Source: Candidatus Hodarchaeum mangrovi (GTDB taxonomy: Archaea > Asgardarchaeota > Heimdallarchaeia > Hodarchaeales > Hodarchaeaceae). Taken from it: DNA of 10,958 nt. This document shows positions 3-10,958 of the stretch, piece by piece. The translations under genes were made by a program, and so were the position numbers. The notes below the pieces were generated by a model that was given only the letters and a program-made list of their open reading frames with translations, was not told where the DNA came from and made no database searches. Location: contig JAEOUE010000229.1 of the NCBI GenBank assembly GCA_016839515.1, forward strand, positions 1 to 10,958. The letters are read 5' to 3'. Numbering within the stretch: position 1 is the stretch's first letter; each line of letters begins with the position of its first letter.

Positions 3-455
3 TTAGATAATAATAATGGACAGGAAAATACTGATGTTCATCCTGTTTCTTCACCTGCGACTGTTACTTTTACCCTCTCAAATCCGAGTGACGAAGTTGC
101 ATTAATCTATCTCGAAGCCCGACAAATAGGATCAGGGAATCTCTGGCCAGTCGAAATTCAACGTGATTACCCTCAAGTCCAGTCTCCTGGGGAGAATAAG
201 ACCATTAAAATCACTATAAATGCCCCCGAGGATGTCAAAGAAGGTGAGCGACGCATTTATGTGATCCATGCTTATATCAATGGGATTCTAATTGGTGGGG
301 TTGAAATTGACTTTGTGAAAAGTCAATATACCTCAACTAGTACCTCATCTCTTTCTTCCAGTACCTCGCTCCCAACCGCCAATATAACCACATTCTCAAT
401 TCCCTTTATCTTGCTTCCCACCTTATCCATCTATTTATGGAAAAAGAGGAAATAA
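3..455 (+). CDS. 5'-truncated membrane-anchored surface protein: Ig-like beta-sandwich + Ser/Thr linker + C-terminal TM helix + basic tail
   Basis: The frame of the 261..455 ORF is open back to the window edge (LDNNNGQENTDVHPVSSPATVTFTLSNPSDE...SPGENKTIKITINAPEDVKEGERRIYVIHAYING...). VTFTLSN...PGENKTIKITINAPED fits an Ig-like/CARDB-type strand pattern. It is followed by TSTSTSSLSSSTS, hydrophobic FSIPFILLPTLSIYLW and KKRK-stop. Confidence 0.75.
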   Translation, partial: LDNNNGQENTDVHPVSSPATVTFTLSNPSDEVALIYLEARQIGSGNLWPVEIQRDYPQVQSPGENKTIKITINAPEDVKEGERRIYVIHAYINGILIGGVEIDFVKSQYTSTSTSSLSSSTSLPTANITTFSIPFILLPTLSIYLWKKRK

Positions 456-737: not shown

Positions 738-2429
738 GTGTTGTTTTTCGCTGAAATAAAATCAATCGCCTCATTTATACCAGTTAACAGGTTAGAAATC
801 GAGGAGCTCGTTGATCACTATCACGCAATGTCGCAATTGAACTATAAAATTGCGCTAGGTATGATGAAACGTGCAGTGAATCGTTTTCGCGGGAAAGCAT
901 TAAGTTCTGTCAGGTGGATCTATAATCAACGTTTAATGTTAAATGAAAAAATTGTCCCTGGTCCAAATGAAGATGCTTTAACGGCTGGAATTCAATCTTT
1001 TAACTATGCTATTAAGAGAGCCGGCATTCAACCTCATCAAATTGATGCTTTGTTCGTTGTATCTGAATCATACCCCTACGCTGTTAAATCAAGCACTGCA
1101 CTAGCTGGAAAAACAGGTGTGACAAATCTAAGATTTGGAGTAAGGGGTGAGTTTGCGTGTAAACCCTTTGGTGAATTCCTAGAAATCGGGGCTGCATTAA
1201 TAGATTCTAAAAGATGTCGTTATGTAGCAATTACAGCTACTGATGCTTCTCAAGGTGCACCAGGAGACGATCTTGAGTTTTCAGCATCATTTTATTCAAC
1301 TACAATGATCCTCGGGGAAGATGGTGATGGGAGTATCGCAAAACTGCAGGGTAGGACTTCTATAAATTATGATTTTAGTGATTTCATTCGAAAAGAAGGT
1401 GAACCATTCCCCGAACATGAAGGGCAAGGAACAAGTCTTGCATTCCGTGGAATGATTCTTTCTGCGGTAAAGAAACACCTTGAACGTTATGAAATAGCTC
1501 CCGAGTGCCTTCCGAACAAAACTTGGGTTATCCACAGCCCCAATGGTTCTTTTCCTAATGAAGCCTTACTAGATGTTTCTGATTATTTTGGTATTAAGTT
1601 GGCTGAAAAGAAATTTGATGGGGACGGAAAAATGCTTGGGATTGAACCCCAGGTCAAGGTTTCAAACTTAGCTCCTCAAATTGCTAACGGTTATTCTGCA
1701 ACTGTTCCAACTGCTTTGTGTGCAGCAATGGAGAATAGTGCTAAAGGGGATGAGATTATGACCGTCCTTTATGGCTCAGGTGCAGGGTCTGACGTGATTA
1801 GTATCAAAATGAAAGTTAATGGTTTAATTGTAGCTAATAGTGAAGTACCAACAGTCCAAGAACAAATTGACTATAAACAAAAGATCTCAGTTGAGGATTA
1901 CATCAATTACCGGGACACTGCTGAAAAAATTGCCAAACATAGGGCGCTTTTGGAGGTAGAACCTCTATCAGAAGAGTATTATCAGGTTGAAGGATGTCCT
2001 GTGTGTGGAGCGGTTTACTTCGGGGATAGCTGGAATCCAGAGAATTTTCCAGATTTTTCACCACCTGAGAAATTCTTTGAATTACGAGGTAAATGTTTAC
2101 GGGGAATTCAAAAAGATAAAAGTGATACCAAGCGAATATGTAGTGCAGAATTACAAAAGATAAAAGTATTTAAGCGCGCTAAAATTACGAATGTCACTTT
2201 ATATGGCGGAAAAAAGCAGGTTGGTCATCCTGAGAACCCCTATTGGACAATGTTTGAACAGAAGATGATTCGAGCATTCAACTATAATCCTAAAATCTAT
2301 AATTTCATGGTTGGTCAAGAAGTGAAAGCAGTAATTGGTCGCTGGCGCCCCTCCCCGAAAGATTGGGTTCCTATCCTCTATGTTCCTATGTATGCACCTC
2401 TTCGACGGGACTATGCTAAAAAACAATAA
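738..2429 (+). CDS. Archaeal-type hydroxymethylglutaryl-CoA synthase (thiolase fold) fused to a C-terminal DUF35-like Zn-ribbon/OB-fold domain
   Basis: Archaeal HMGCS motifs: EKIVPGPNED, SESYPYAVK (Glu110), GEFACK (Cys141), SQGAPGDDLEFSA, DFIRKEGEPFP, HSPNGSFP (His266), ANGYSA, YGSGAGSD. After about aa 410: GCPVCGAVYF...PP...C...C and VGQEVKAVIGRW...ILYVPMYAP, resembling DUF35 proteins. Confidence 0.85.
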   Translation: MLFFAEIKSIASFIPVNRLEIEELVDHYHAMSQLNYKIALGMMKRAVNRFRGKALSSVRWIYNQRLMLNEKIVPGPNEDALTAGIQSFNYAIKRAGIQPHQIDALFVVSESYPYAVKSSTALAGKTGVTNLRFGVRGEFACKPFGEFLEIGAALIDSKRCRYVAITATDASQGAPGDDLEFSASFYSTTMILGEDGDGSIAKLQGRTSINYDFSDFIRKEGEPFPEHEGQGTSLAFRGMILSAVKKHLERYEIAPECLPNKTWVIHSPNGSFPNEALLDVSDYFGIKLAEKKFDGDGKMLGIEPQVKVSNLAPQIANGYSATVPTALCAAMENSAKGDEIMTVLYGSGAGSDVISIKMKVNGLIVANSEVPTVQEQIDYKQKISVEDYINYRDTAEKIAKHRALLEVEPLSEEYYQVEGCPVCGAVYFGDSWNPENFPDFSPPEKFFELRGKCLRGIQKDKSDTKRICSAELQKIKVFKRAKITNVTLYGGKKQVGHPENPYWTMFEQKMIRAFNYNPKIYNFMVGQEVKAVIGRWRPSPKDWVPILYVPMYAPLRRDYAKKQ

Positions 2430-2451
2430 ATATTAAATGTTTAAAATCCAT

Positions 2452-2461
2452 AATTTTTTTT
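2452..2461 (+). terminator. Oligo-T tract in the 48-bp gap between convergent genes
   Basis: T9 run about 25 nt after the HMGCS stop codon. Confidence 0.4.
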
Positions 2462-2477
2462 AGAAAGTCAGAGAAAA

Positions 2478-5249
2478 CTAAAAACCATCTATCTTTTTCC
2501 GCTTCTCGAAGAGTTTATCCGTAAGAAAGTTACCTACACTTTCCAATTTCTTATCAATTTCTACTGCTTTTGTTTTCACATGCTCTTTCTCAGGTTTTGG
2601 AACACTAAAGATTGATAGTGTTCCTACGATTTGGTGTTCCTGATTTATGACAGGAAGTATAGATTCTCCCGTAATAGAAAATATTCCCCAAGCTTCTTTC
2701 AGCTTTTGATCAAGACTAAAGGTATAACTGATGGGAAAGGCCACCTCAAAGACTTGAATATTCTCTAGTTTACTTCTTTCTTCAACCATGTTGAATGGAA
2801 TAAAACCAGTTGGAATTCCATCTTGTGTAATAATCCATGTTTCTTTATCATTAGGATTTACTTGGATATTTGAGCAGAATTGATCCCATTCAAGTAGCTT
2901 GAAATTTTTTTGGACATATTCATCAATTGATTCCTCAGCATTGGTAATTCCAACATATTCTTCGCTAATCTTTTCCAGATTGATATCAAATGTAACTGGT
3001 AATTTTATTAGTTCAATTTGAGCTTTATTTATCAAAATTGCTGAAAATGATTTACCAATTGTGCCATTCGCATAAAATCCCAATTTATTTTCGTCATAGA
3101 TCCGATGATTATGCCCCACAATGATTATTTGATTCATTAGGGTATTATCTGTCTTAAATTTAGTAATATATTGATCGAGAGGAGGATTATAGCTACGCCA
3201 AAAATCTTGGTCGCCATGTGCAATCCAAATGTTTTCGTCTTGATAATAATCACCAATAAAATATATCCCTAATTCTCGTTCTAGTTTTAAACGAAACTTA
3301 TCCCAAAATTCTTCTGGGTCATGATTCCCTGAAATTATGTGAATTCTTTGATCCCCAAGAGAATTCTGGATTTGAGACAATTCATCAAGGATGGAAATCC
3401 CCTTTTTGTCAGCTTCAGAGAGTTCATTAACACAATCAATATTGAAAACATCTCCCGCAATTAAAATTGATTTAACTCGATGTGTCTCACATGTCTTCTT
3501 GATTTCTTCCAAACATAATTTAGCTAATTTATTATTAAGTCCCCAGTGAAGATCCGAAAAGACCAGAAGGGGGTATGCAATTTTATATTCAGTCCCAATT
3601 GGTTCTTGAGGTTCTAATTTTTGTAAAATATCATTGTAAACATCTTTTATAATGGTTTTGAGTTCCTCATTAATAAATTCCACCATATTAATAGGCATTT
3701 CTCTTGTTAGCTTATATTTCGTATCTGCAAAACAATTATATCCTTGAATAAGCTTATTTCCTTGTTTTTCCGAGATTAAATTTTGTTCGATGGCAATTTT
3801 AAGGCGGTCACTAGTTGAAGTAGTAAAAGTAGTCTCACTGAGGATCGCTAAAATAGTACTAATATCCTGTAAAGCTGTAAGAACAGAATATGTCTTAAAT
3901 ATTGAATCATAGAGGAAAGGTTGACAAATGCGTAAATTTTCCCCTAAAGCATTACTTTCATCCTTGAGGGATTCTGTGATACGAAGAAGAATCGGAATTA
4001 TATCAGGAAGTGCTTTTTTGGTAATTTTTGTAATTTCCTCTCGTAGAACTTGCCCTTTTCCAATAGGTTTCTCATATATCGGAACCATATTTATTATTGA
4101 TTTGTAGATAGACCAGCAATATTTTCTAATACCATCTTTACGGTCTTCGTCAGAGATAGGGGTGTTTCGAAGGGATTGGATAGAAGAAAGCATTTTTTCC
4201 AGTTCTTTTTTCTGATTTTGTTCTAAGAAACCTTCATCTCCGTAAAGAAAAGCCTTTAGGATGTTTGTTATTGACTCTTCATGGAAATTAAGATTCACCA
4301 GATTTTCTAATTTACATAATTCGAGATTAGGAACATGCTGCAGAACTTGGTCAAGAGCCTCACCTACCTGCAAAAATTGCTTTTCACTCCCCTCATGAAT
4401 CAATAGCATATCTAAGTCTGATGTGTCTGAATATTCTCCTCTCCCATACCCGCCACAGATTCCAATGATGAAATTACTAGGGATGCCTACCATCCTTTTC
4501 TCTTCCTTATTAACCTGAAGGATTTTGTTAAAAACCTCAATTTTCTCTACCAATAGTACAGAACTCTCAAGAAGAAGATTAATGCGCGAAAGAACAGTGG
4601 ATGGGGTTCTTTCATTCCATATTGATCCTAAATATGCTCTAATTTGATTCATATCCCAAGTGAGTTTGCTTGCCTTTGATAATTCCCGATATGACAAAAA
4701 ATGTTCTATACGTGGTGGAATGGCATGGGGTGTGGTTTGGTAGGTAAATTCAGTAATTTTTTTTATAGAATTCATAAACTCAGGGAGAATAGAGGATTTC
4801 TTATTCATAGGTCCTTTGACGATTAGGAGTTCTTCAAACTCTGATATTTCAGGGGTCGATTTCAAGATAAGGATACTGTCTTCTAATTTGATATCTTTAC
4901 ACTTTTCAAATAGATCCCAATAACCTGATTTAATCATCTTATTTTCTACTAAATTATTGAAAAGGTCGATTGAGGATTTAATGATTTGATGTTTGGTAAA
5001 ACGATCCTTATTCCAGATCCGTTCTTTGGATATTGACTCGAGGTCTACCCAATCGTCATTTAAAAAGAAGATTCCTTTTTTAAATAGGAGGTCTTCTGGA
5101 AGATAGAAGACATTTCCTGCGTGTGTCAATAATAGGCTGATGGCTGGAGTCTGTACATGTTTAAGATCTTCAAATGACGTAATCTTCTGTAAATAGCTTT
5201 GTTCGCTTAAATAAAATCGTAAGGTTTTAATTGCACCGTTGAAATCCAT
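2478..5249 (-). CDS. Multidomain protein (~923 aa): unknown N-terminal region + GlnD/GlnE/DUF294-type nucleotidyltransferase + helical substrate-binding domain + calcineurin-like metallophosphoesterase + CBS pair
   Basis: NTase motif IGICGGYGRGEYSDTSDLDMLLIH (~4400-4465). GlnE/DUF294_C-like TSTSDRLKIAIEQNLISEKQGNKLIQGY (~3735-3820). All five MPE motifs: SDLHWG, AGDVFN, SGNHD, AHGD, VGHNH (~3100-3570). CBS-like C-terminus LDQKLKEAWGIF...ILPVINQEHQIVGTLS. Start reassigned from 5294 to ATG 5249, which is 2 nt after the upstream stop and preceded by the SD-like GGTGGAGGG. Confidence 0.8.
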   Translation of the reverse strand: MDFNGAIKTLRFYLSEQSYLQKITSFEDLKHVQTPAISLLLTHAGNVFYLPEDLLFKKGIFFLNDDWVDLESISKERIWNKDRFTKHQIIKSSIDLFNNLVENKMIKSGYWDLFEKCKDIKLEDSILILKSTPEISEFEELLIVKGPMNKKSSILPEFMNSIKKITEFTYQTTPHAIPPRIEHFLSYRELSKASKLTWDMNQIRAYLGSIWNERTPSTVLSRINLLLESSVLLVEKIEVFNKILQVNKEEKRMVGIPSNFIIGICGGYGRGEYSDTSDLDMLLIHEGSEKQFLQVGEALDQVLQHVPNLELCKLENLVNLNFHEESITNILKAFLYGDEGFLEQNQKKELEKMLSSIQSLRNTPISDEDRKDGIRKYCWSIYKSIINMVPIYEKPIGKGQVLREEITKITKKALPDIIPILLRITESLKDESNALGENLRICQPFLYDSIFKTYSVLTALQDISTILAILSETTFTTSTSDRLKIAIEQNLISEKQGNKLIQGYNCFADTKYKLTREMPINMVEFINEELKTIIKDVYNDILQKLEPQEPIGTEYKIAYPLLVFSDLHWGLNNKLAKLCLEEIKKTCETHRVKSILIAGDVFNIDCVNELSEADKKGISILDELSQIQNSLGDQRIHIISGNHDPEEFWDKFRLKLERELGIYFIGDYYQDENIWIAHGDQDFWRSYNPPLDQYITKFKTDNTLMNQIIIVGHNHRIYDENKLGFYANGTIGKSFSAILINKAQIELIKLPVTFDINLEKISEEYVGITNAEESIDEYVQKNFKLLEWDQFCSNIQVNPNDKETWIITQDGIPTGFIPFNMVEERSKLENIQVFEVAFPISYTFSLDQKLKEAWGIFSITGESILPVINQEHQIVGTLSIFSVPKPEKEHVKTKAVEIDKKLESVGNFLTDKLFEKRKKIDGF

Positions 5250-5251
5250 AA

Positions 5252-7222
5252 TTAGCCCTCCACCATCTGTTTTAAGCCTAATAAAATTATCCAATCTGAC
5301 CTATCTGTTAAAATTGATTCTTCCTTTGGCTTATAATTAAGATCTCTCAGTGTTTCAAAAGCCTCCATTCGTATGAAAGTAGATTCTTCTTGATCTTTGA
5401 ATATATTAAAGAGTAAATCAAGACTTTTTTCGTCAATACTGTGTTTTCCAAGGGCTTCTAGTGCAGCCTGTCTCATACGTTCATCATTCGATTTATCAAT
5501 AGCAAAATTAAGCAAAAATTTGGTGACTTCAGGATCGAGATATGTTTGCATATTCCGTAACGCAATAATTTTGATTTTTATGGCAATATCATCATTTATT
5601 GCCATCTGAAGCAATAAATCTTTTTCTGTTCCTTGTCTTGCGATAAAATCTATAACCGATCGCTTAATTGGATCAGGAAGCCTAATGAAATCATTGAAAG
5701 TATTGTATAATTGAGGTAATTTACTTGTAAACCATGCTAGTGAGTCAATTGCTCTTCCTCTTAAAAATTGGTTGTCCTGTTCATTTTCAGCAACCGATTT
5801 AAGGAAAGGTACTAGTTTACTTCCCACCCTGCTAATGAGAATGCGAAGTGCCAGTTCACGGAGTTGGAAATCTTGATTTGAGTCCTCAAAAATCTTGAAG
5901 AATTTTTTTACAATCGGATCCATAGAGATTATAGGATTAATAGCTGAAATACCAGAATCAGGAAATTGATTGATAATTTTCTTTCGTAAAAGCTGAATGG
6001 GTTCTTTAAGTTTGTATTCGGGGATTCCTCTTCCATATGCTTGTATAGATATTTTTCCTCTGTCTAAAGATTGTGCTTCAAAGGAAATATTTGGATATTT
6101 TTGACGAAATTCTTCTAATAATCCTGTGTCTAATTGTAATTCGTCAATTTCTTCTGCTTCAAAGCCAATTCTAGCTGAAAAGTGATATTGTAAGTAGTTA
6201 AGACATACCCACTTAATAGAGGCATGTTCATAGGGATGGTCAAGGATATCGGAGATTAATCGGTTGATCTTCTCTTCCTTGAGATTGAGGGGCAAATTTT
6301 GGATGATTTTAGATCTTTCTTCTTTGGATAATTTCCGATTGAACAATTTTTTCCATTCTTCATGCCTTTGATAGCTGGCAATATTCCCATATACTGGTTC
6401 TTCGTTTACAGTCGAAAATTTAATCCCTGGATGGTTTTTTATGAGGTCTATAAGTTTAACCACATCGTAAAAATCAATAGAAGCATCAAATCCTTTTTCT
6501 CTAATCTCTTGTTTAGTTAACATCTCCTCAGAATCATCAACAATCTTCAAAAATGTAAAAATACTATCAATAACTAGATTCTCTGAAAATTTTTGTTTGA
6601 TATTGTAATATCTGAATGTACATCGTTTATATCCCTCTGCAATTGTCTCTTCTCGCTCAAATCTCACCCAGTTAGTAATATTATCAGCCATAATAGAATC
6701 ATATTCACACATAATAAAACCTAGATCTTCACGTTTGAACTGTTTGAAGACTTCATGATAGAAACATCGATTGATATCAAATGCAAATTCCTTTTCAGTA
6801 ACGTTAATTTCCTTTACTTGAAAATATTCATTATCATAGATTCTTTGATTACCTTTTCGAGCATCTTCCACAAAAATAGTCCATGGATCCTTAGAAGAAG
6901 CCATGTACCGTCGTTGGGGTTCTAAAACTAATTCTTCAAGCATAATTTTATAGATAGCTAATACGAGCCTTAGAATAATGGTGGTATCCTTTTTTCCTTC
7001 CTCTCCAGGGAGTGATTCCTCAAGAGCTATAACAAAAATAGGATTAATACCATGAAAAAGCTGAGTTTCGTTAAAAGATTCTTTAAGAGTTTCATAAAGC
7101 TCTCGAAAACGAGTTGCAAACGAGGATAAGATCGTATCAGCTTCCTCTAGGTCAAAGGCCTTTTTAAGCTCATTTGAAGTTAATAATACAAAATAATCAA
7201 ACATTTGGTCCAGACTTGACAT
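5252..7222 (-). CDS. L-2-amino-thiazoline-4-carboxylic acid hydrolase-like (V4R-related) domain + wHTH-like domain + HEAT/PBS-lyase repeat protein
   Basis: FAFDINRCFYHEVFKQFKREDLGFIMCEYD...RFEREETIAEGYKRCTFRY matches the ATC-hydrolase family pattern with three conserved Cys. The C-terminal ~30-aa repeats (DSNQDFQLRELALRIL, ENEQDNQFLRGRAIDSL, DKSNDERMRQAALEALG, DQEESTFIRMEAFETL) are HEAT-like. Start taken at ATG 7222; GTG 7231 is possible. Confidence 0.75.
   Translation of the reverse strand: MSSLDQMFDYFVLLTSNELKKAFDLEEADTILSSFATRFRELYETLKESFNETQLFHGINPIFVIALEESLPGEEGKKDTTIILRLVLAIYKIMLEELVLEPQRRYMASSKDPWTIFVEDARKGNQRIYDNEYFQVKEINVTEKEFAFDINRCFYHEVFKQFKREDLGFIMCEYDSIMADNITNWVRFEREETIAEGYKRCTFRYYNIKQKFSENLVIDSIFTFLKIVDDSEEMLTKQEIREKGFDASIDFYDVVKLIDLIKNHPGIKFSTVNEEPVYGNIASYQRHEEWKKLFNRKLSKEERSKIIQNLPLNLKEEKINRLISDILDHPYEHASIKWVCLNYLQYHFSARIGFEAEEIDELQLDTGLLEEFRQKYPNISFEAQSLDRGKISIQAYGRGIPEYKLKEPIQLLRKKIINQFPDSGISAINPIISMDPIVKKFFKIFEDSNQDFQLRELALRILISRVGSKLVPFLKSVAENEQDNQFLRGRAIDSLAWFTSKLPQLYNTFNDFIRLPDPIKRSVIDFIARQGTEKDLLLQMAINDDIAIKIKIIALRNMQTYLDPEVTKFLLNFAIDKSNDERMRQAALEALGKHSIDEKSLDLLFNIFKDQEESTFIRMEAFETLRDLNYKPKEESILTDRSDWIILLGLKQMVEG
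5255..5264 (-). promoter_or_regulatory. Shine-Dalgarno site (GGTGGAGGG) within the end of the upstream gene, consistent with translational coupling
   Basis: The minus strand reads ...ATGGTGGAGGGCTAATTATGGAT...: SD, upstream TAA stop, 2 nt, ATG. Confidence 0.7.
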
Positions 7223-7267
7223 ACAATCCACACATTAATACTTGAAGATTCATCACAAAAAGATAAA

Positions 7268-7319: not shown

Positions 7320-7676
7320 ATGACAATAAATAAGAATAGAGCACCTCGTTCAATGCTTGATCGTGCCCAAGCAATATTCAAAATCATCAATGATATAGAT
7401 AGTCCATTTGCCAAAACGAAATTGACAAAAGCTAAAATAAGTCCAAAGGCCGCAGAAAATTGGTTAGACCTGATAGTATTTATTCAAAATCAACCTAAGA
7501 TTAGGGTTACAAAAACAGAAAGAAATACTTTTGTTGAGAAAGTAGGAGGCAAGTTCTCCCAAATGAGTTTGAATTTCTTTTTAGATGAGAACCAACCAAT
7601 TGAAAAAAGACTTCAAAGTTTGGAAGCTTATGCACAATCGATTTTTGTACAACAGCGGTTAGCAAAACGAGATTAA
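7320..7676 (+). CDS. Small (118 aa) basic protein, putative winged-helix DNA-binding regulator
   Basis: The first 26 codons of the 7242 ORF are AT-rich promoter sequence, so the likely start is ATG 7320 (MTINKNRAPRSMLDRAQAIFKII...). The helix-helix-helix-beta-hairpin pattern (AQAIFKII / KTKLTKA / PKAAENWLDLIVFIQ / KIRVTK..NTFVEK) is compatible with a wHTH. Confidence 0.65.
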   Translation: MTINKNRAPRSMLDRAQAIFKIINDIDSPFAKTKLTKAKISPKAAENWLDLIVFIQNQPKIRVTKTERNTFVEKVGGKFSQMSLNFFLDENQPIEKRLQSLEAYAQSIFVQQRLAKRD

Positions 7677-7853: not shown

Positions 7854-8495
7854 ATGAATATAAGACAAAAAGTGCTTCTTGTATTTTCTTGGTTCTGCAT
7901 TCTCCTCTCCATTAGCATTTTAGTCTCTTTAATCGCCGCGAATTCGCAAAATATAGCAGTAATTTCCTTCATACGTACAATGCATGGTAATACTACAGGT
8001 AACTTCGGTGAAAATGGACGTGCAAGTTTTTCTTTCTATGGTGGGGGACTTTCGGCTTGGAATGACACCGCAATGGTCCCAGTAAAGTATGAGTATAGTT
8101 TCTATGATTCTACTGTCAATCGTAGTGCTTATTATTGGCTAGCATTTGTTGTTGAGTTTATTAACCCAGAAGGAGAAGTTATCTTCAATGCTACTCGAAA
8201 AATCTTTACTTATCAGAATACAGGTTATGAATTTTTTGATCAATTTGAAACAGATTTAAACTGGTATCTTCCAACTGAAATGAGTGAAATCTCTAATGGT
8301 GAGGTATGGCATGGCATTGCGTATATGATTGGTAAAGTGACCTATGATCAACTTATATATAGTAATAGCAGCAATTTTTGGGATATTACATATACCACTT
8401 CTAACTTTTCTCACTCTAGTGTTTTAACCGTTCTTCCCATAATTCTAGCATTGAATACACTAATTATGTTTTCACGCAAAAAAACATCCAAATAA
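7854..8495 (+). CDS. Hypothetical cell-surface glycoprotein (N-terminal signal/TM, beta-rich ectodomain, C-terminal TM + basic tail)
   Basis: N-terminal RQK followed by a hydrophobic stretch. Six N-x-S/T sequons (NTT, NDT, NRS, NAT, NSS, NFS). C-terminal VLTVLPIILALNTLIMFSRKKTSK. SD-like AGGAG at 7839-7843. Confidence 0.7.
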   Translation: MNIRQKVLLVFSWFCILLSISILVSLIAANSQNIAVISFIRTMHGNTTGNFGENGRASFSFYGGGLSAWNDTAMVPVKYEYSFYDSTVNRSAYYWLAFVVEFINPEGEVIFNATRKIFTYQNTGYEFFDQFETDLNWYLPTEMSEISNGEVWHGIAYMIGKVTYDQLIYSNSSNFWDITYTTSNFSHSSVLTVLPIILALNTLIMFSRKKTSK

Positions 8496-8683: not shown

Positions 8684-9667
8684 ATGGAAACCAAGTTGGT
8701 TCATTCCTATAGTGCTTTAATTCTTGCTGGAGTAGCATTTGGTACAGTTCCTATTTTCTCTGCTATTTTACGAGATTTACAAGTCTCTAGTATTGAACAA
8801 AGCTTCATGCGTCTGTTAATTGGATTTATTGCAGGTGGATTTCTAATATGTAAATATATATGGGATTCTCCTGAGAATGTTGGTCTTAGTGGAAGATTTT
8901 TACACCAAAAATCTTATATTATTCAAGGATTTCTATTATCCTCAGCATTAAATTGCTATTTAGCTTCAATTGCTCTAAACACGCCAATTGGAACAGCTGC
9001 TTTTTTAATTCAGATTCACCCTTTAGTCACTTTTTTTCTGGGATATTTTCTATTAAATGAAAAAATAAATAAGAATAAAGTTCTTGCATTGTTCTTTGCC
9101 CTTTTAGGAGTGATAATTCTTACAAAACCATGGGAGTATTCTCTTTTCATTAACTCTTTTCCAGGAGTCGTTTTAGCTGGCATCTCAGGATTATCATATG
9201 GGCTTTATTTAATTATGGGAAAATTAGTTCAAGACCAAAGATCGATGATACCTCAATCCATTTCTTTTGGATGGATTTTAATCTGGGGATTCATTATGTG
9301 GTTTCCTTTTCTAATTTTTTCAAAGACTTTTCTAACAGCTCCTCAAATTAATTTTTTCAATATATGGACGTATTTTAATCCTTTACATCTTACATTTGGT
9401 ATTTGTCTTGGTGTAATCGGGAATGTTATTCCTTTTGGATTAATTATAGTGGCAATAAAACATGTTTCATCATTCAAAGCATCAGTTTTTTTACTAATTG
9501 AACCACTAGCAGCAATTATTCTCGCAACAATGGTACTTCATGAGCCGATTTCAGTTTGGTATCTCTTAGGAGGATTTTTCATTCTAATAGCTTCTTTCCT
9601 AATGTTAAAGCCTTATGTTTCTCCTCCATTAACAAAATCAAAGGAAATTATTCTTGAATTACCTTGA
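8684..9667 (+). CDS. EamA/DMT family transporter
   Basis: About 10 hydrophobic segments in two repeats. Motifs GVAFGTVPIF, TPIGTAAFLIQIHPLVTFFLGYFLLNEKI and ASVFLLIEPLAAIILATMVLHEPIS are typical EamA signatures. GGAG at 8671-8674. Confidence 0.92.
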   Translation: METKLVHSYSALILAGVAFGTVPIFSAILRDLQVSSIEQSFMRLLIGFIAGGFLICKYIWDSPENVGLSGRFLHQKSYIIQGFLLSSALNCYLASIALNTPIGTAAFLIQIHPLVTFFLGYFLLNEKINKNKVLALFFALLGVIILTKPWEYSLFINSFPGVVLAGISGLSYGLYLIMGKLVQDQRSMIPQSISFGWILIWGFIMWFPFLIFSKTFLTAPQINFFNIWTYFNPLHLTFGICLGVIGNVIPFGLIIVAIKHVSSFKASVFLLIEPLAAIILATMVLHEPISVWYLLGGFFILIASFLMLKPYVSPPLTKSKEIILELP

Positions 9668-9806: not shown

Positions 9807-10958
9807 GTGAAGATTCTTTACTCAAAAGAAGAAATTAGACATCTACCTTATAGGAAAAGCGACCTACCTCTGGATGATCGAATAAAAGATATTTTAAAAC
9901 GATTAACTTTAGATGAAAAGATCCGATTATTGTCTGGCCATCGCATATTCAACACTGCTCCTATCCCCCGATTAGGATTACCACGGTTTCGAATGACTGA
10001 TGGCCCATTAGGAGTTTCTATGCTTTCAAGTGGATTAACCAAAAATACACGATTTCCATGTACAAAAGCCCTTGCTTCAACATGGAACAGAGAGTTAACT
10101 CGACAATTTGGAGAAAGTGTAGCAAAAGAGGTGGTAGCAGTAGGGAGACATTGCTTATTAGCACCTGGGATCAATATCGATCGAACCCCTTTTAATGGTC
10201 GGACATTCGAGTATTTTAGTGAAGATCCTTTTTTAATTAAAGAACTGGTCATCCCTCTTGTAAAGGCCGTTCAAGCTAATAGAATTGCCACCTGTGTAAA
10301 GCATTATGCAGCAAATAACCAGGAAACTTTTCGAAAGGAGATCGATGCACAAATCGATGAGAGAACCCTTCATGAAATTTATTTACGAGGATTTGAATCT
10401 ATTGTCAGAAATGCTGATCCTTGGTCTATTATGACCTGTTATAATAAGGTAAATGGAATATATGGTAGTGAACATCATTATCTTCTTCGAGATGTGCTAA
10501 TTAATAAATGGGGATTTAGTGGATTTATTGTCTCAGATTGGGGTGCTACTAAACATGATGAATTAACCACTGAGAAGTGTCTTGAGGCAGGGCTCTCCTT
10601 AGAAATGCCTAATGCCTACAAATATAAAAAGGATTTAGTGAAAGACGCCTTGTTAAAAGGAACCATTTCCGAAGGGCAGATAAATGATGTTTTACGACCG
10701 CTTTTAATAGTTATGGGAAAAACAGGATTATTTGATGAGTCTAAAACAGAATCAAAAGGTGAAAGGAACACTCTAGATCATCAGATATTAGCTAGGGAAA
10801 TTGCAGAAGAGGGAATTGTATTATTAAAAAATGATAATATATTACCCCTAAAATTGGAAAAACTTTCGTCAATTGCTGTTCTAGGGCCAAACAAGGATAC
10901 ACAGTTTGGAAAGTTGCTTTATGGAGGTAGTTCAGCAGTAAAGGCACCATATGAAGTA
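9807..10958 (+). CDS. Glycoside hydrolase family 3 (beta-glucosidase/BglX-like), 3'-truncated by the window edge; absent from the ORF track
   Basis: GTG 9807 follows the SD-like AGGTGA (9795-9800) and the frame is open to the end: MKILYSKEEIRHLPYRKSDLPLDDRIKDILKRLTLDEKIRLLSG...IPRLGLPRFRMTDGPLGV...LAPGINIDRTPFNGRTFEYFSEDP...KHYAANNQE...IMTCYNKVNG...WGFSGFIVSDWG (catalytic nucleophile Asp)...GLSLEMP...AEEGIVLLKNDNILPL...IAVLGPN. Confidence 0.95.
   Translation, partial: MKILYSKEEIRHLPYRKSDLPLDDRIKDILKRLTLDEKIRLLSGHRIFNTAPIPRLGLPRFRMTDGPLGVSMLSSGLTKNTRFPCTKALASTWNRELTRQFGESVAKEVVAVGRHCLLAPGINIDRTPFNGRTFEYFSEDPFLIKELVIPLVKAVQANRIATCVKHYAANNQETFRKEIDAQIDERTLHEIYLRGFESIVRNADPWSIMTCYNKVNGIYGSEHHYLLRDVLINKWGFSGFIVSDWGATKHDELTTEKCLEAGLSLEMPNAYKYKKDLVKDALLKGTISEGQINDVLRPLLIVMGKTGLFDESKTESKGERNTLDHQILAREIAEEGIVLLKNDNILPLKLEKLSSIAVLGPNKDTQFGKLLYGGSSAVKAPYEV

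Follow-up and report, generated by a model that had tools for sequence, protein, structure and literature searches.

The locus described here raises the question of whether one archaeal protein both attaches a nucleotide to a partner protein and removes it again. The window, a stretch of 10,958 nucleotides from Candidatus Hodarchaeum mangrovi (contig JAEOUE010000229.1), contains on its reverse strand a gene whose 923-residue product (P0001) combines a nucleotidyltransferase (NTase), a calcineurin-like metallophosphoesterase (MPE) and a pair of CBS domains. The answer that we tentatively favour, at somewhat below an even chance, is a reversible protein-nucleotidylylation switch, in which the NTase is the writer, the MPE the eraser and the CBS pair the gate, and a HEAT-repeat protein encoded just upstream is the target or scaffold. 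This switch is favoured because the relatives of the NTase transfer nucleoside monophosphate (NMP) to proteins, the MPE is a complete hydrolase, the two halves are either fused or encoded side by side, and the HEAT-repeat protein is coupled to them. The architecture and the operon are solid; from them we infer that the NTase is active and acts on a protein, that the MPE is its eraser, that the CBS pair binds a ligand and that the HEAT-repeat protein takes part as target or scaffold.

Domains of the 923-residue protein

The frame at 2478..5294 (-) is open, and the ATG at 5249 gives the 923-residue protein. This ATG is the right start, because the Shine-Dalgarno-like sequence GGTGGAGGG (5264-5256 on the reverse strand, within the end of the upstream gene) lies 6 nt 5' of it, the TAA of the upstream gene (5254-5252) is separated from it by 2 nt, and all homologues of P0001 share the start M-D/N-F. 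As judged from this arrangement, the gene is translationally coupled to that of the HEAT-repeat protein.

A preliminary description of this DNA, made from its letters alone, listed an NTase, a helical domain, an MPE and a CBS pair. All four domains are confirmed by motifs, sequence profiles and fold comparison, and each of the listed motifs (GGYGRGE, SDLD and the five MPE motifs) is found. The list of parts was incomplete: an N-terminal domain of about 184 residues, a C-terminal motif and the HEAT-repeat operon partner had been missed. The proposed check of each domain with profiles, AlphaFold and Foldseek supports all four. For this check, an AlphaFold2 model was made from a profile of 11 sequences (A1), with a mean predicted local distance difference test (pLDDT) of 71.5 and a predicted template modelling (pTM) score of 0.48; its confidence is high at residues 320-545 and 560-750 and falls to 50-63 over the CBS pair. 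The model was compared with the PDB by Foldseek, and the top Foldseek matches were re-scored with VIA-align (994 chains aligned). A family profile of 32 sequences (A2) was used for sequence comparison, and conservation was counted over the 31 members whose sequences span the NTase. The weak Pfam matches recur among the 32 members at E<=0.05 (E, expectation value): NTP_transf_2 in 30, Metallophos_2 in 29, Metallophos in 23, DUF294_C in 11, CBS in 5 and DUF294 in 2.

The MPE families are the only Pfam families that score above their cut-offs in the 923-residue protein: Metallophos (PF00149; E 4.9e-8, 34.1 bits against 21.5) and Metallophos_2 (PF12850; 33.6 bits against 27). The DxH, GD, GNH[DE], H and GHxH motifs of calcineurin-like MPEs, which together with these scores place the domain among them, are D566-x-H568, G599-D600, G641-N-H-D644, H678 and G712-H-N-H715. 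These metal ligands and motifs are kept in 31/31 members, except that H715 is kept in 30/31. All five motifs are kept, and therefore a binuclear metal centre is expected. The nearest folds by VIA-align are those of LpxH, MJ0936 and SbcD, which hydrolyse nucleotide pyrophosphates or phosphodiesters; the MPE has the fold and the five-motif binuclear centre of LpxH, MJ0936 and SbcD-Mre11. Unlike these enzymes, it shares its chain with an NTase and a CBS pair and lies below the cut-offs of the specific families, none of which is reached (SbcD 30.6 bits against 77.65, sbcd_Bac 20.1 against 750, PdeM 17.6 against 150); no LpxH model matches at E<=0.1. Archaea are not expected to contain lipid A.

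A fold close to that of SbcD raises the alternative that the protein processes nucleic acid ends, with the NTase tailing 3' ends of RNA or DNA and an Mre11/SbcD-like MPE trimming ends or healing 2',3'-cyclic or 3'-phosphate ends. This alternative is improbable, since the SbcD score is far under its cut-off, the NTase matches GlnD, GlnE and DrrA with no similarity to NTases of the CCA or poly(A)-polymerase type, and Pfam and NCBIfam scans give no nucleic-acid-binding domain.

The NTase is of the DNA polymerase beta (Pol-beta) type. Its GGYGRGE motif (266-272) is followed by YSDT-SDLD (D278, D280), and the superfamily motifs hG[GS] and [DE]x[DE] are present as G266-G267 and D278-x-D280. G266, G267, R270, E272, S277, D278, D280, H285, E286 and G287 are invariant in 31/31 members, the last three forming an HEG motif (285-287), and a YEKPIGKG motif is conserved at 392-399. 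G266, G267, S277, D278, D280 and E393-K394 are kept in 30-31/31 members, down to 26-35 % identity. Two Pfam families match this region of the 923-residue protein below their cut-offs: NTP_transf_2 (E 0.0083) and DUF294_C (PF10335; E 0.034 and 0.0088, 14.4 bits against 22.5). The NTase fold is followed by a helical domain of the KNTase_C clan, and the fold alignments with GlnE and DrrA (VIA-align) extend through this domain to residue 539-546. GlnD is the closest relative of the NTase by sequence, and GlnE and DrrA are the closest by fold. When the A2 profile is aligned with E. coli GlnD by hhalign, a probability of 85.6 % is obtained (E 5.6e-6, 68 columns); a greedier local alignment gives 92.5 % (E 5e-7, 261 columns) and matches residues 200-507 of the family with residues 40-319 of GlnD.

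The CBS pair is divergent. Pfam CBS does not match the 923-residue protein, even at E<=10 on its C-terminal piece. The A1 profile, compared with the sequences of the PDB, matches best the CBS-pair protein ST2348 (2ef7; E 0.0043, over its full length, chain residues 3-122), and the two tandem CBS motifs form the pair fold with canonical topology. The ribose of adenosyl ligands is bound in CBS domains by the motif G-h-h-[ST]-x-x-[DN]. In CBS2 the sequence is G876-T-L-S879-I-F-S882, and a Ser occupies the position normally held by the ribose-binding Asp in 31/31 members (ST2348 alignment); CBS1 reads G815-F-I-P818-F-N820, with N820 at that position. The preliminary description had proposed an adenylate-sensing CBS pair; the pair is there, and adenylate sensing can only be supposed, because the positions of the ribose-binding Asp are occupied by S882 and N820.

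The N-terminal domain matches no Pfam family at E<=10 over residues 1-184, and a model of residues 1-255 on their own has a pLDDT of 67.4. An exhaustive VIA search (48,161 chains) and Foldseek place gelsolin-type domains at or near the top for this domain (Foldseek E 0.17-1). Homology to gelsolin (PF00626) is not supported by sequence, and the fold scores do not rise above background. We give only a very faint chance to the idea that this weakly gelsolin-like domain brings the enzyme to the actin cytoskeleton of Asgard archaea. Gelsolin domains above the Pfam cut-off occur in at least five proteins of the source genome (contigs C344, C148, C70, C179 and C34), including single-domain proteins of 114-123 residues, as expected for an Asgard archaeon.

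Conservation of the fusion and of its HEAT-repeat partner

The fusion is real and conserved. Relatives were searched in 41 genomes, namely the source genome (G000) and 40 relatives. The protein is matched in 12/21 other genomes of the same genus and in 0/19 genomes that belong to other families of this class. A complete frame occurs in six genomes of the genus (G013, G009, G014, G019, G020 and G002; open frames of 929-960 residues), one of which, G009, is a single contig of 4.9 Mb. The query is covered by these frames up to residue 920; in G020 and G002 the match consists of two pieces that lie in a single frame. The other matches in the genus are cut by contig ends, save that in G003. In G003, the sole match (G003:C127:2973-3464) covers residues 756-918 and has two in-frame TAA stops; the HEAT-repeat partner is not found in this genome, and the fragment is possibly a decaying copy. 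Among 300 further genomes sampled from the phylum, the protein occurs in 11/20 of the genus, 1/11 of family f5 and 0/269 others.

An exhaustive phmmer search of 1.84 billion representative proteins gives 13 matches at E<=0.001, which are labelled Heimdall/Hodarchaeales or unlabelled. A word-indexed search gives 46 clusters, 37 of which are 912-960 residues long. Most of these clusters are labelled Hodarchaeales or Heimdallarchaeota, and the labels Thorarchaeota, Promethearchaeota and Kariarchaeaceae appear once each; a partial record with 99 % identity carries the name Candidatus Hodarchaeum mangrovi. For P0003, a full-length homologue with 35 % identity, no locus is found in genome or metagenome contigs. 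The stretch 2478-7231 is present in 20 runs of seven studies; no RNA runs are listed for it. Four runs were examined, and in two of them, from other studies, contigs run across the NTase/MPE junction free of indels and joints (X3 covers 2400-4667 and X16 covers 3441-3744); the other two runs have gaps at the junction and have no bearing either way. Misassembly, which the preliminary description had named as a danger, is ruled out by the six complete frames, the 37/46 clusters of full length and the bridging contigs from two other studies. The searches for homologues in genomes and protein clusters indicate a conserved 923-residue fusion protein limited to a small group of Asgard archaea. In agreement with the preliminary description, no characterised protein with NTase, MPE and CBS domains and no paper on the family is found in the literature (supplementary files were outside this search), and the database names of the clusters are generic ('metallophosphoesterase', 'predicted nucleotidyltransferase', 'hypothetical').

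A split form exists in family f5. G171 has two adjacent genes, one for a 533-residue half with the N-terminal domain, the NTase and the helical domain, and one for a 376-residue half with the MPE and the CBS pair. The cut falls at the linker of residues 547-556, where P0008 ends and P0005 begins; this split pair is on record with consecutive accession numbers. The two halves are adjacent and cut at the linker, and therefore they belong together (Rosetta-stone evidence). The MPE half of the split form holds the CBS domains, and therefore the CBS pair goes with the phosphoesterase. The N-terminal domain goes with the NTase half.

The upstream partner matches Pfam ATC_hydrolase (E 3.7e-16) and HEAT (E 3.2e-11 with the whole protein as query and 1.3e-12 with its C-terminal piece). 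Full-length orthologues of the partner (E<1e-250) are encoded in 11 genomes of the genus, each immediately adjacent to the fusion gene (11/11 genomes that bear the module), in kin genomes that are not independent of one another. No full-length orthologue is found in the other 10 genomes of the genus (nine without a match to the fusion protein, and G003); four of these 10 (G001, G007, G010 and G016) give weak matches in the ATC_hydrolase region only. The partner family comprises 45 clusters, at least 20 of which are on contigs equal in length to those of the fusion-protein clusters. The HEAT module is a constant companion, because the split genes have it as well: immediately upstream of the gene for the NTase half in G171 lies one for a 300-residue HEAT-only protein homologous to partner residues 445-630 (BLASTP 8e-10, 21 % identity over 188 residues). 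Homologues of partner residues 6-215 that consist of the ATC_hydrolase part alone (40-42 % identity; G029:C151:8568-9197 and G031:C99:10170-10763) are found in family f4, in which the fusion protein is missing. The partner looks like a fusion of an ATC_hydrolase module and a HEAT module, because the former stands alone in f4.

The distribution bears on a further reading, in which the locus would be an accessory conflict module for defence against viruses, patchy within one genus. The module is missing from several genomes that are at least 90 % complete, with matches in 12/21 as given above, and between loci only the three module genes are shared, the flanks being different. We nevertheless regard a defence function as highly improbable. 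PADLOC gives nothing significant (its best match, E 0.0023, is a short match to the NTase motif), and the neighbourhoods of four loci contain ordinary transport and metabolic genes and no mobile or defence genes; these two results rule against a defence system. The divergence of orthologues by 60-70 % also looks vertical.

The proposed nucleotidylylation switch compared with known systems

In the switch that we favour, the NTase and its helical domain, being of the GlnD/GlnE/DrrA type, would transfer NMP from a nucleoside triphosphate to a side-chain hydroxyl group on a target protein, and the fused binuclear MPE would hydrolyse the protein-O-P-nucleoside phosphodiester. The CBS pair would bind a small ligand and would mainly gate the removing activity. 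The co-translated HEAT-repeat protein would be either the target itself or a scaffold that presents the target, and the N-terminal domain probably docks a partner. On this reading, the protein would be a bifunctional NMP-transferase/remover of the GlnD/GlnE type, in which the hydrolase and sensor modules are exchanged and a new fixed partner is acquired. The more specific claim of a switch peculiar to Heimdallarchaeia, which uses a calcineurin-like MPE fused in cis as de-nucleotidylylase and acts on or through the HEAT partner, is doubtful.

The likeness to GlnD is close in the NTase and in the logic of the polypeptide. The NTase signature, GGYGRGE ... SD[LV]D, is identical, and the alignment runs into the helical region, pairing 'VRTLEECMLEGL' with 'VPNLELCKLENL' and 'LLIGD' with 'FLYGD'. 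Both proteins would combine an NMP-transferase, a metal-dependent hydrolase and small-ligand sensors on one chain. Unlike GlnD, the fusion protein has an MPE in place of the HD domain, a CBS pair in place of the ACT domains and an extra N-terminal domain, and it carries a deletion of seven residues at the putative strand of the third catalytic carboxylate. On these profile scores and gene contents the fusion protein is not GlnD, because no HD or ACT domain is found among the Pfam and NCBIfam matches at E<=0.1 or in the tally of the 32 members, the GlnD model TIGR01693 scores only 22.4 bits against a cut-off of 519.4 (NCBIfam; residues 264-306 only), and the PII gene (PF00543) is found in 0/5 carriers of the fusion gene, namely the source genome (91 % complete) and four others, one of them a single contig. 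The same search is positive in 13/14 control genomes. The preliminary description had called the protein a GlnD analogue. This remains reasonable as far as the GlnD-like NTase and the placing of a writer beside an eraser are concerned; GlnD acting on PII is ruled out by the missing PII gene.

The other comparisons also give partial likeness. The sequence similarity to GlnE covers only 16 columns (E 0.048). GlnE uses a second NTase domain as eraser and DrrA is paired with the PPM-fold protein SidD, whereas the role of eraser would here fall to a calcineurin-like MPE that is fused in cis. DUF294 proteins (cyclic NMP-binding domain, CBS pair, DUF294 NTase and DUF294_C) share the NTase, the helical C-domain and the CBS pair, and for the orthologue P0032 the nearest structure cluster in the Atlas is a bacterial one of CBS-DUF294-DUF294_C architecture (template modelling score 0.52, 334 residues aligned); a feature search with P0032 in the Atlas gives no usable match. 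Unlike DUF294 proteins, the fusion protein has its CBS pair at the C-terminus and its MPE inserted between the NTase and the CBS pair. PF03445 (DUF294) gives no match in the 923-residue protein or its genome and is weak in 2/32 members. By these Pfam models, the protein is not a member of the DUF294 family, for which no functional study is found in the literature. The closest precedent for the gene logic is the pair of adjacent genes for the AMPylase DrrA/SidM and the deAMPylase SidD, which has a binuclear-metal phosphatase fold, as described in the accessible part of a review (PMC12409994); their adjacency is mirrored by the split halves of G171.

Several points weigh against the switch. The substrates of the best fold matches of the MPE are small molecules or DNA rather than proteins. 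The folds named for deAMPylation in the accessible part of the 2025 review are FIC, ATase and the phosphatase fold of SidD, with no calcineurin-like MPE among them (PMC12409994); RNase Z is proposed as a deAMPylase in the accessible part of a later paper (PMC12663964). Both CBS motifs lack the usual ribose-binding Asp, in a region where the confidence of the model is moderate only, and the kinship of the genomes reduces the weight of the co-occurrence counts. Finally, the third catalytic carboxylate of the NTase is not assignable, and both hhalign runs place the seven-residue deletion of the family at GlnD 'LLWDVKL'.

The third catalytic carboxylate of Pol-beta enzymes lies on the next strand, in the motif h[DE]h. 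In a weak GlnD-GlnE alignment, 'LLWDVKL' corresponds to GlnE 'YEVDARLRP', the stretch that we take to bear the third Asp. D300, at the place of the third carboxylate, is D in 17, H in seven and N in seven of the 31 members. The NTase could be non-canonical or inactive, and the chance of this is real, because no third carboxylate can be assigned and D300 varies. Conserved acidic residues nearby are E315 (30/31), E324 (29/31), which adjoins the invariant strand N321-F322-H323, and E393 (30 E and one D), which lies within 'YEKPIGKG', a motif resembling the 'DIKxxxGG(L/I)' motif common to GlnD and both GlnE domains. E315, E324 and E393 are candidates for the third ligand.

In the reading that follows from an inactive NTase, this module would serve for nucleotide binding or interaction, and the MPE, as a phosphodiesterase or phosphatase, would be the sole enzyme, regulated by the CBS pair and by the NTase-like domain. 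The seeming deletion and the variable D300 speak for it, as does the fact that the MPE alone reaches a Pfam cut-off in the 923-residue protein. We consider it unlikely, since G-G, S277, D278, D280, H285-E286-G287 and Y392-E393-K394 are invariant or nearly so at 26-35 % identity, which would be difficult to understand if there were no active site, and since the three acidic residues (E393 being acidic in 31/31) are still candidates for the third ligand. The strict conservation of the remaining site down to this identity argues for a functional NTase.

If the NTase is functional, its product may be a small molecule. In such a cycle the NTase would make an NMP-containing metabolite or messenger, such as NDP-X (a nucleoside diphosphate derivative), a dinucleoside polyphosphate or a short oligonucleotide. 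Degradation of this product would fall to the LpxH-like MPE, and the CBS pair would set the balance. The small-molecule substrates of the nearest MPE folds suit this reading. It is nevertheless rather unlikely, because GlnD, GlnE and DrrA, the nearest relatives of the NTase, all modify proteins, no fold match of the cGAS, OAS or CD-NTase type is seen among the matches listed, and the obligatory HEAT-repeat partner fits a protein-directed system better.

The protein-nucleotidylylation switch, if true, would matter in several ways. Few writer-eraser pairs are known for reversible nucleotidylylation (GlnE, GlnD, FICD and DrrA/SidD), and we know of no such pair in archaea. Hodarchaeales are regarded as close relatives of eukaryotes, and the switch would be compact and experimentally tractable in a lineage publicly labelled Hodarchaeales. 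A cis-fused NTase-MPE-CBS enzyme with a fixed HEAT partner would add a new eraser fold, one that is new compared with the deAMPylating folds given in the accessible part of the review (PMC12409994). Even if the protein-directed reading is wrong, the locus is a clean, conserved two-component module that is open to expression and assay.

Features of the window and neighbouring genes

The positions of the features of the fusion gene and of its two module neighbours are collected in the table.

Table. Features of the fusion gene and of the adjacent module genes (positions in the window; residues of the respective product)
Feature	Position	Strand	Residues	Basis or remark
Whole gene	2478..5249	-	923 codons	stop TAG (2478-2480); homologues begin at equivalent start
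C-terminal helix	2487..2555	-	899-921	DSSP of AlphaFold2 model
Linear motif S879-I-F-S-V-P-K-P-E-K-E-H-x-x-T893	2571..2615	-	879-893	nearly invariant; predicted disordered
CBS pair (Bateman module)	2586..2951	-	767-888	divergent
Calcineurin-like MPE	2991..3581	-	557-753	all five metal/catalytic motifs
Linker	3582..3611	-	547-556	low confidence, pLDDT <50 at 547-554; split site in G171
All-helical domain after NTase (KNTase_C/DUF294_C/GlnE-like 'substrate-binding')	3612..4049	-	401-546	
Pol-beta-type NTase core of GlnD/GlnE/DrrA kind	4050..4697	-	185-400	Pfam, motifs, hhalign, fold
N-terminal alpha/beta domain	4698..5249	-	1-184	disordered loop 63-87
Upstream partner gene	5252..7231	-	659	Pfam; ATC_hydrolase 129-208, middle part, C-terminal HEAT repeats ~445-630
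Small divergently transcribed protein	7320..7676	+	118, from M at 7320	adjacent in 4/4 loci and 11/11 module-bearing genus genomes

The small divergent protein, possibly a regulator, is assigned to no family: a phmmer search of the PDB gives chance-level matches only, and Pfam gives matches only at E>0.008. Members of its family are also present in other families of the class, where the module is absent. Partial copies of the small protein lie just past the 3' end of the fusion gene at G013:C17:16898-17107 and G002:C32:6275-6391, one of them with a TGA stop; therefore, the module is bracketed by related sequence in these two genomes. At one of the four loci (L015, from G019), a gene for a Ras-family small GTPase (L015:10702-11262 (-); Pfam Ras E 2.8e-45) lies beside that of the small protein. 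AMPylases of the DrrA type target Rab GTPases; the presence of the Ras gene is probably coincidental.

On the other side of the fusion gene and convergent with it, 738..2429 (+) encodes a 563-residue protein like HMG-CoA synthase (NCBIfam PRK04262, E 2e-58, 198 bits against a cut-off of 244); this adjacency is not conserved in other genomes. The protein has an extra C-terminal extension of about 165 residues with a CPVCG motif and no Pfam match, and it may, as we presume, be fused to the zinc-ribbon/OB partner of archaeal HMG-CoA synthase. The products of 3..455 (+) and 7854..8495 (+), which have no Pfam match, both close with a Ser/Thr-rich stretch that is followed by a hydrophobic segment and then by a basic tail (...LWKKRK and ...FSRKKTSK), which looks like a C-terminal membrane anchor or a sorting signal of surface proteins. 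An EamA-type transporter gene (8684..9667 (+)) and a glycoside hydrolase family 3 gene (9807..10958 (+)), the latter truncated by the end of the window, have no link to the fusion gene.

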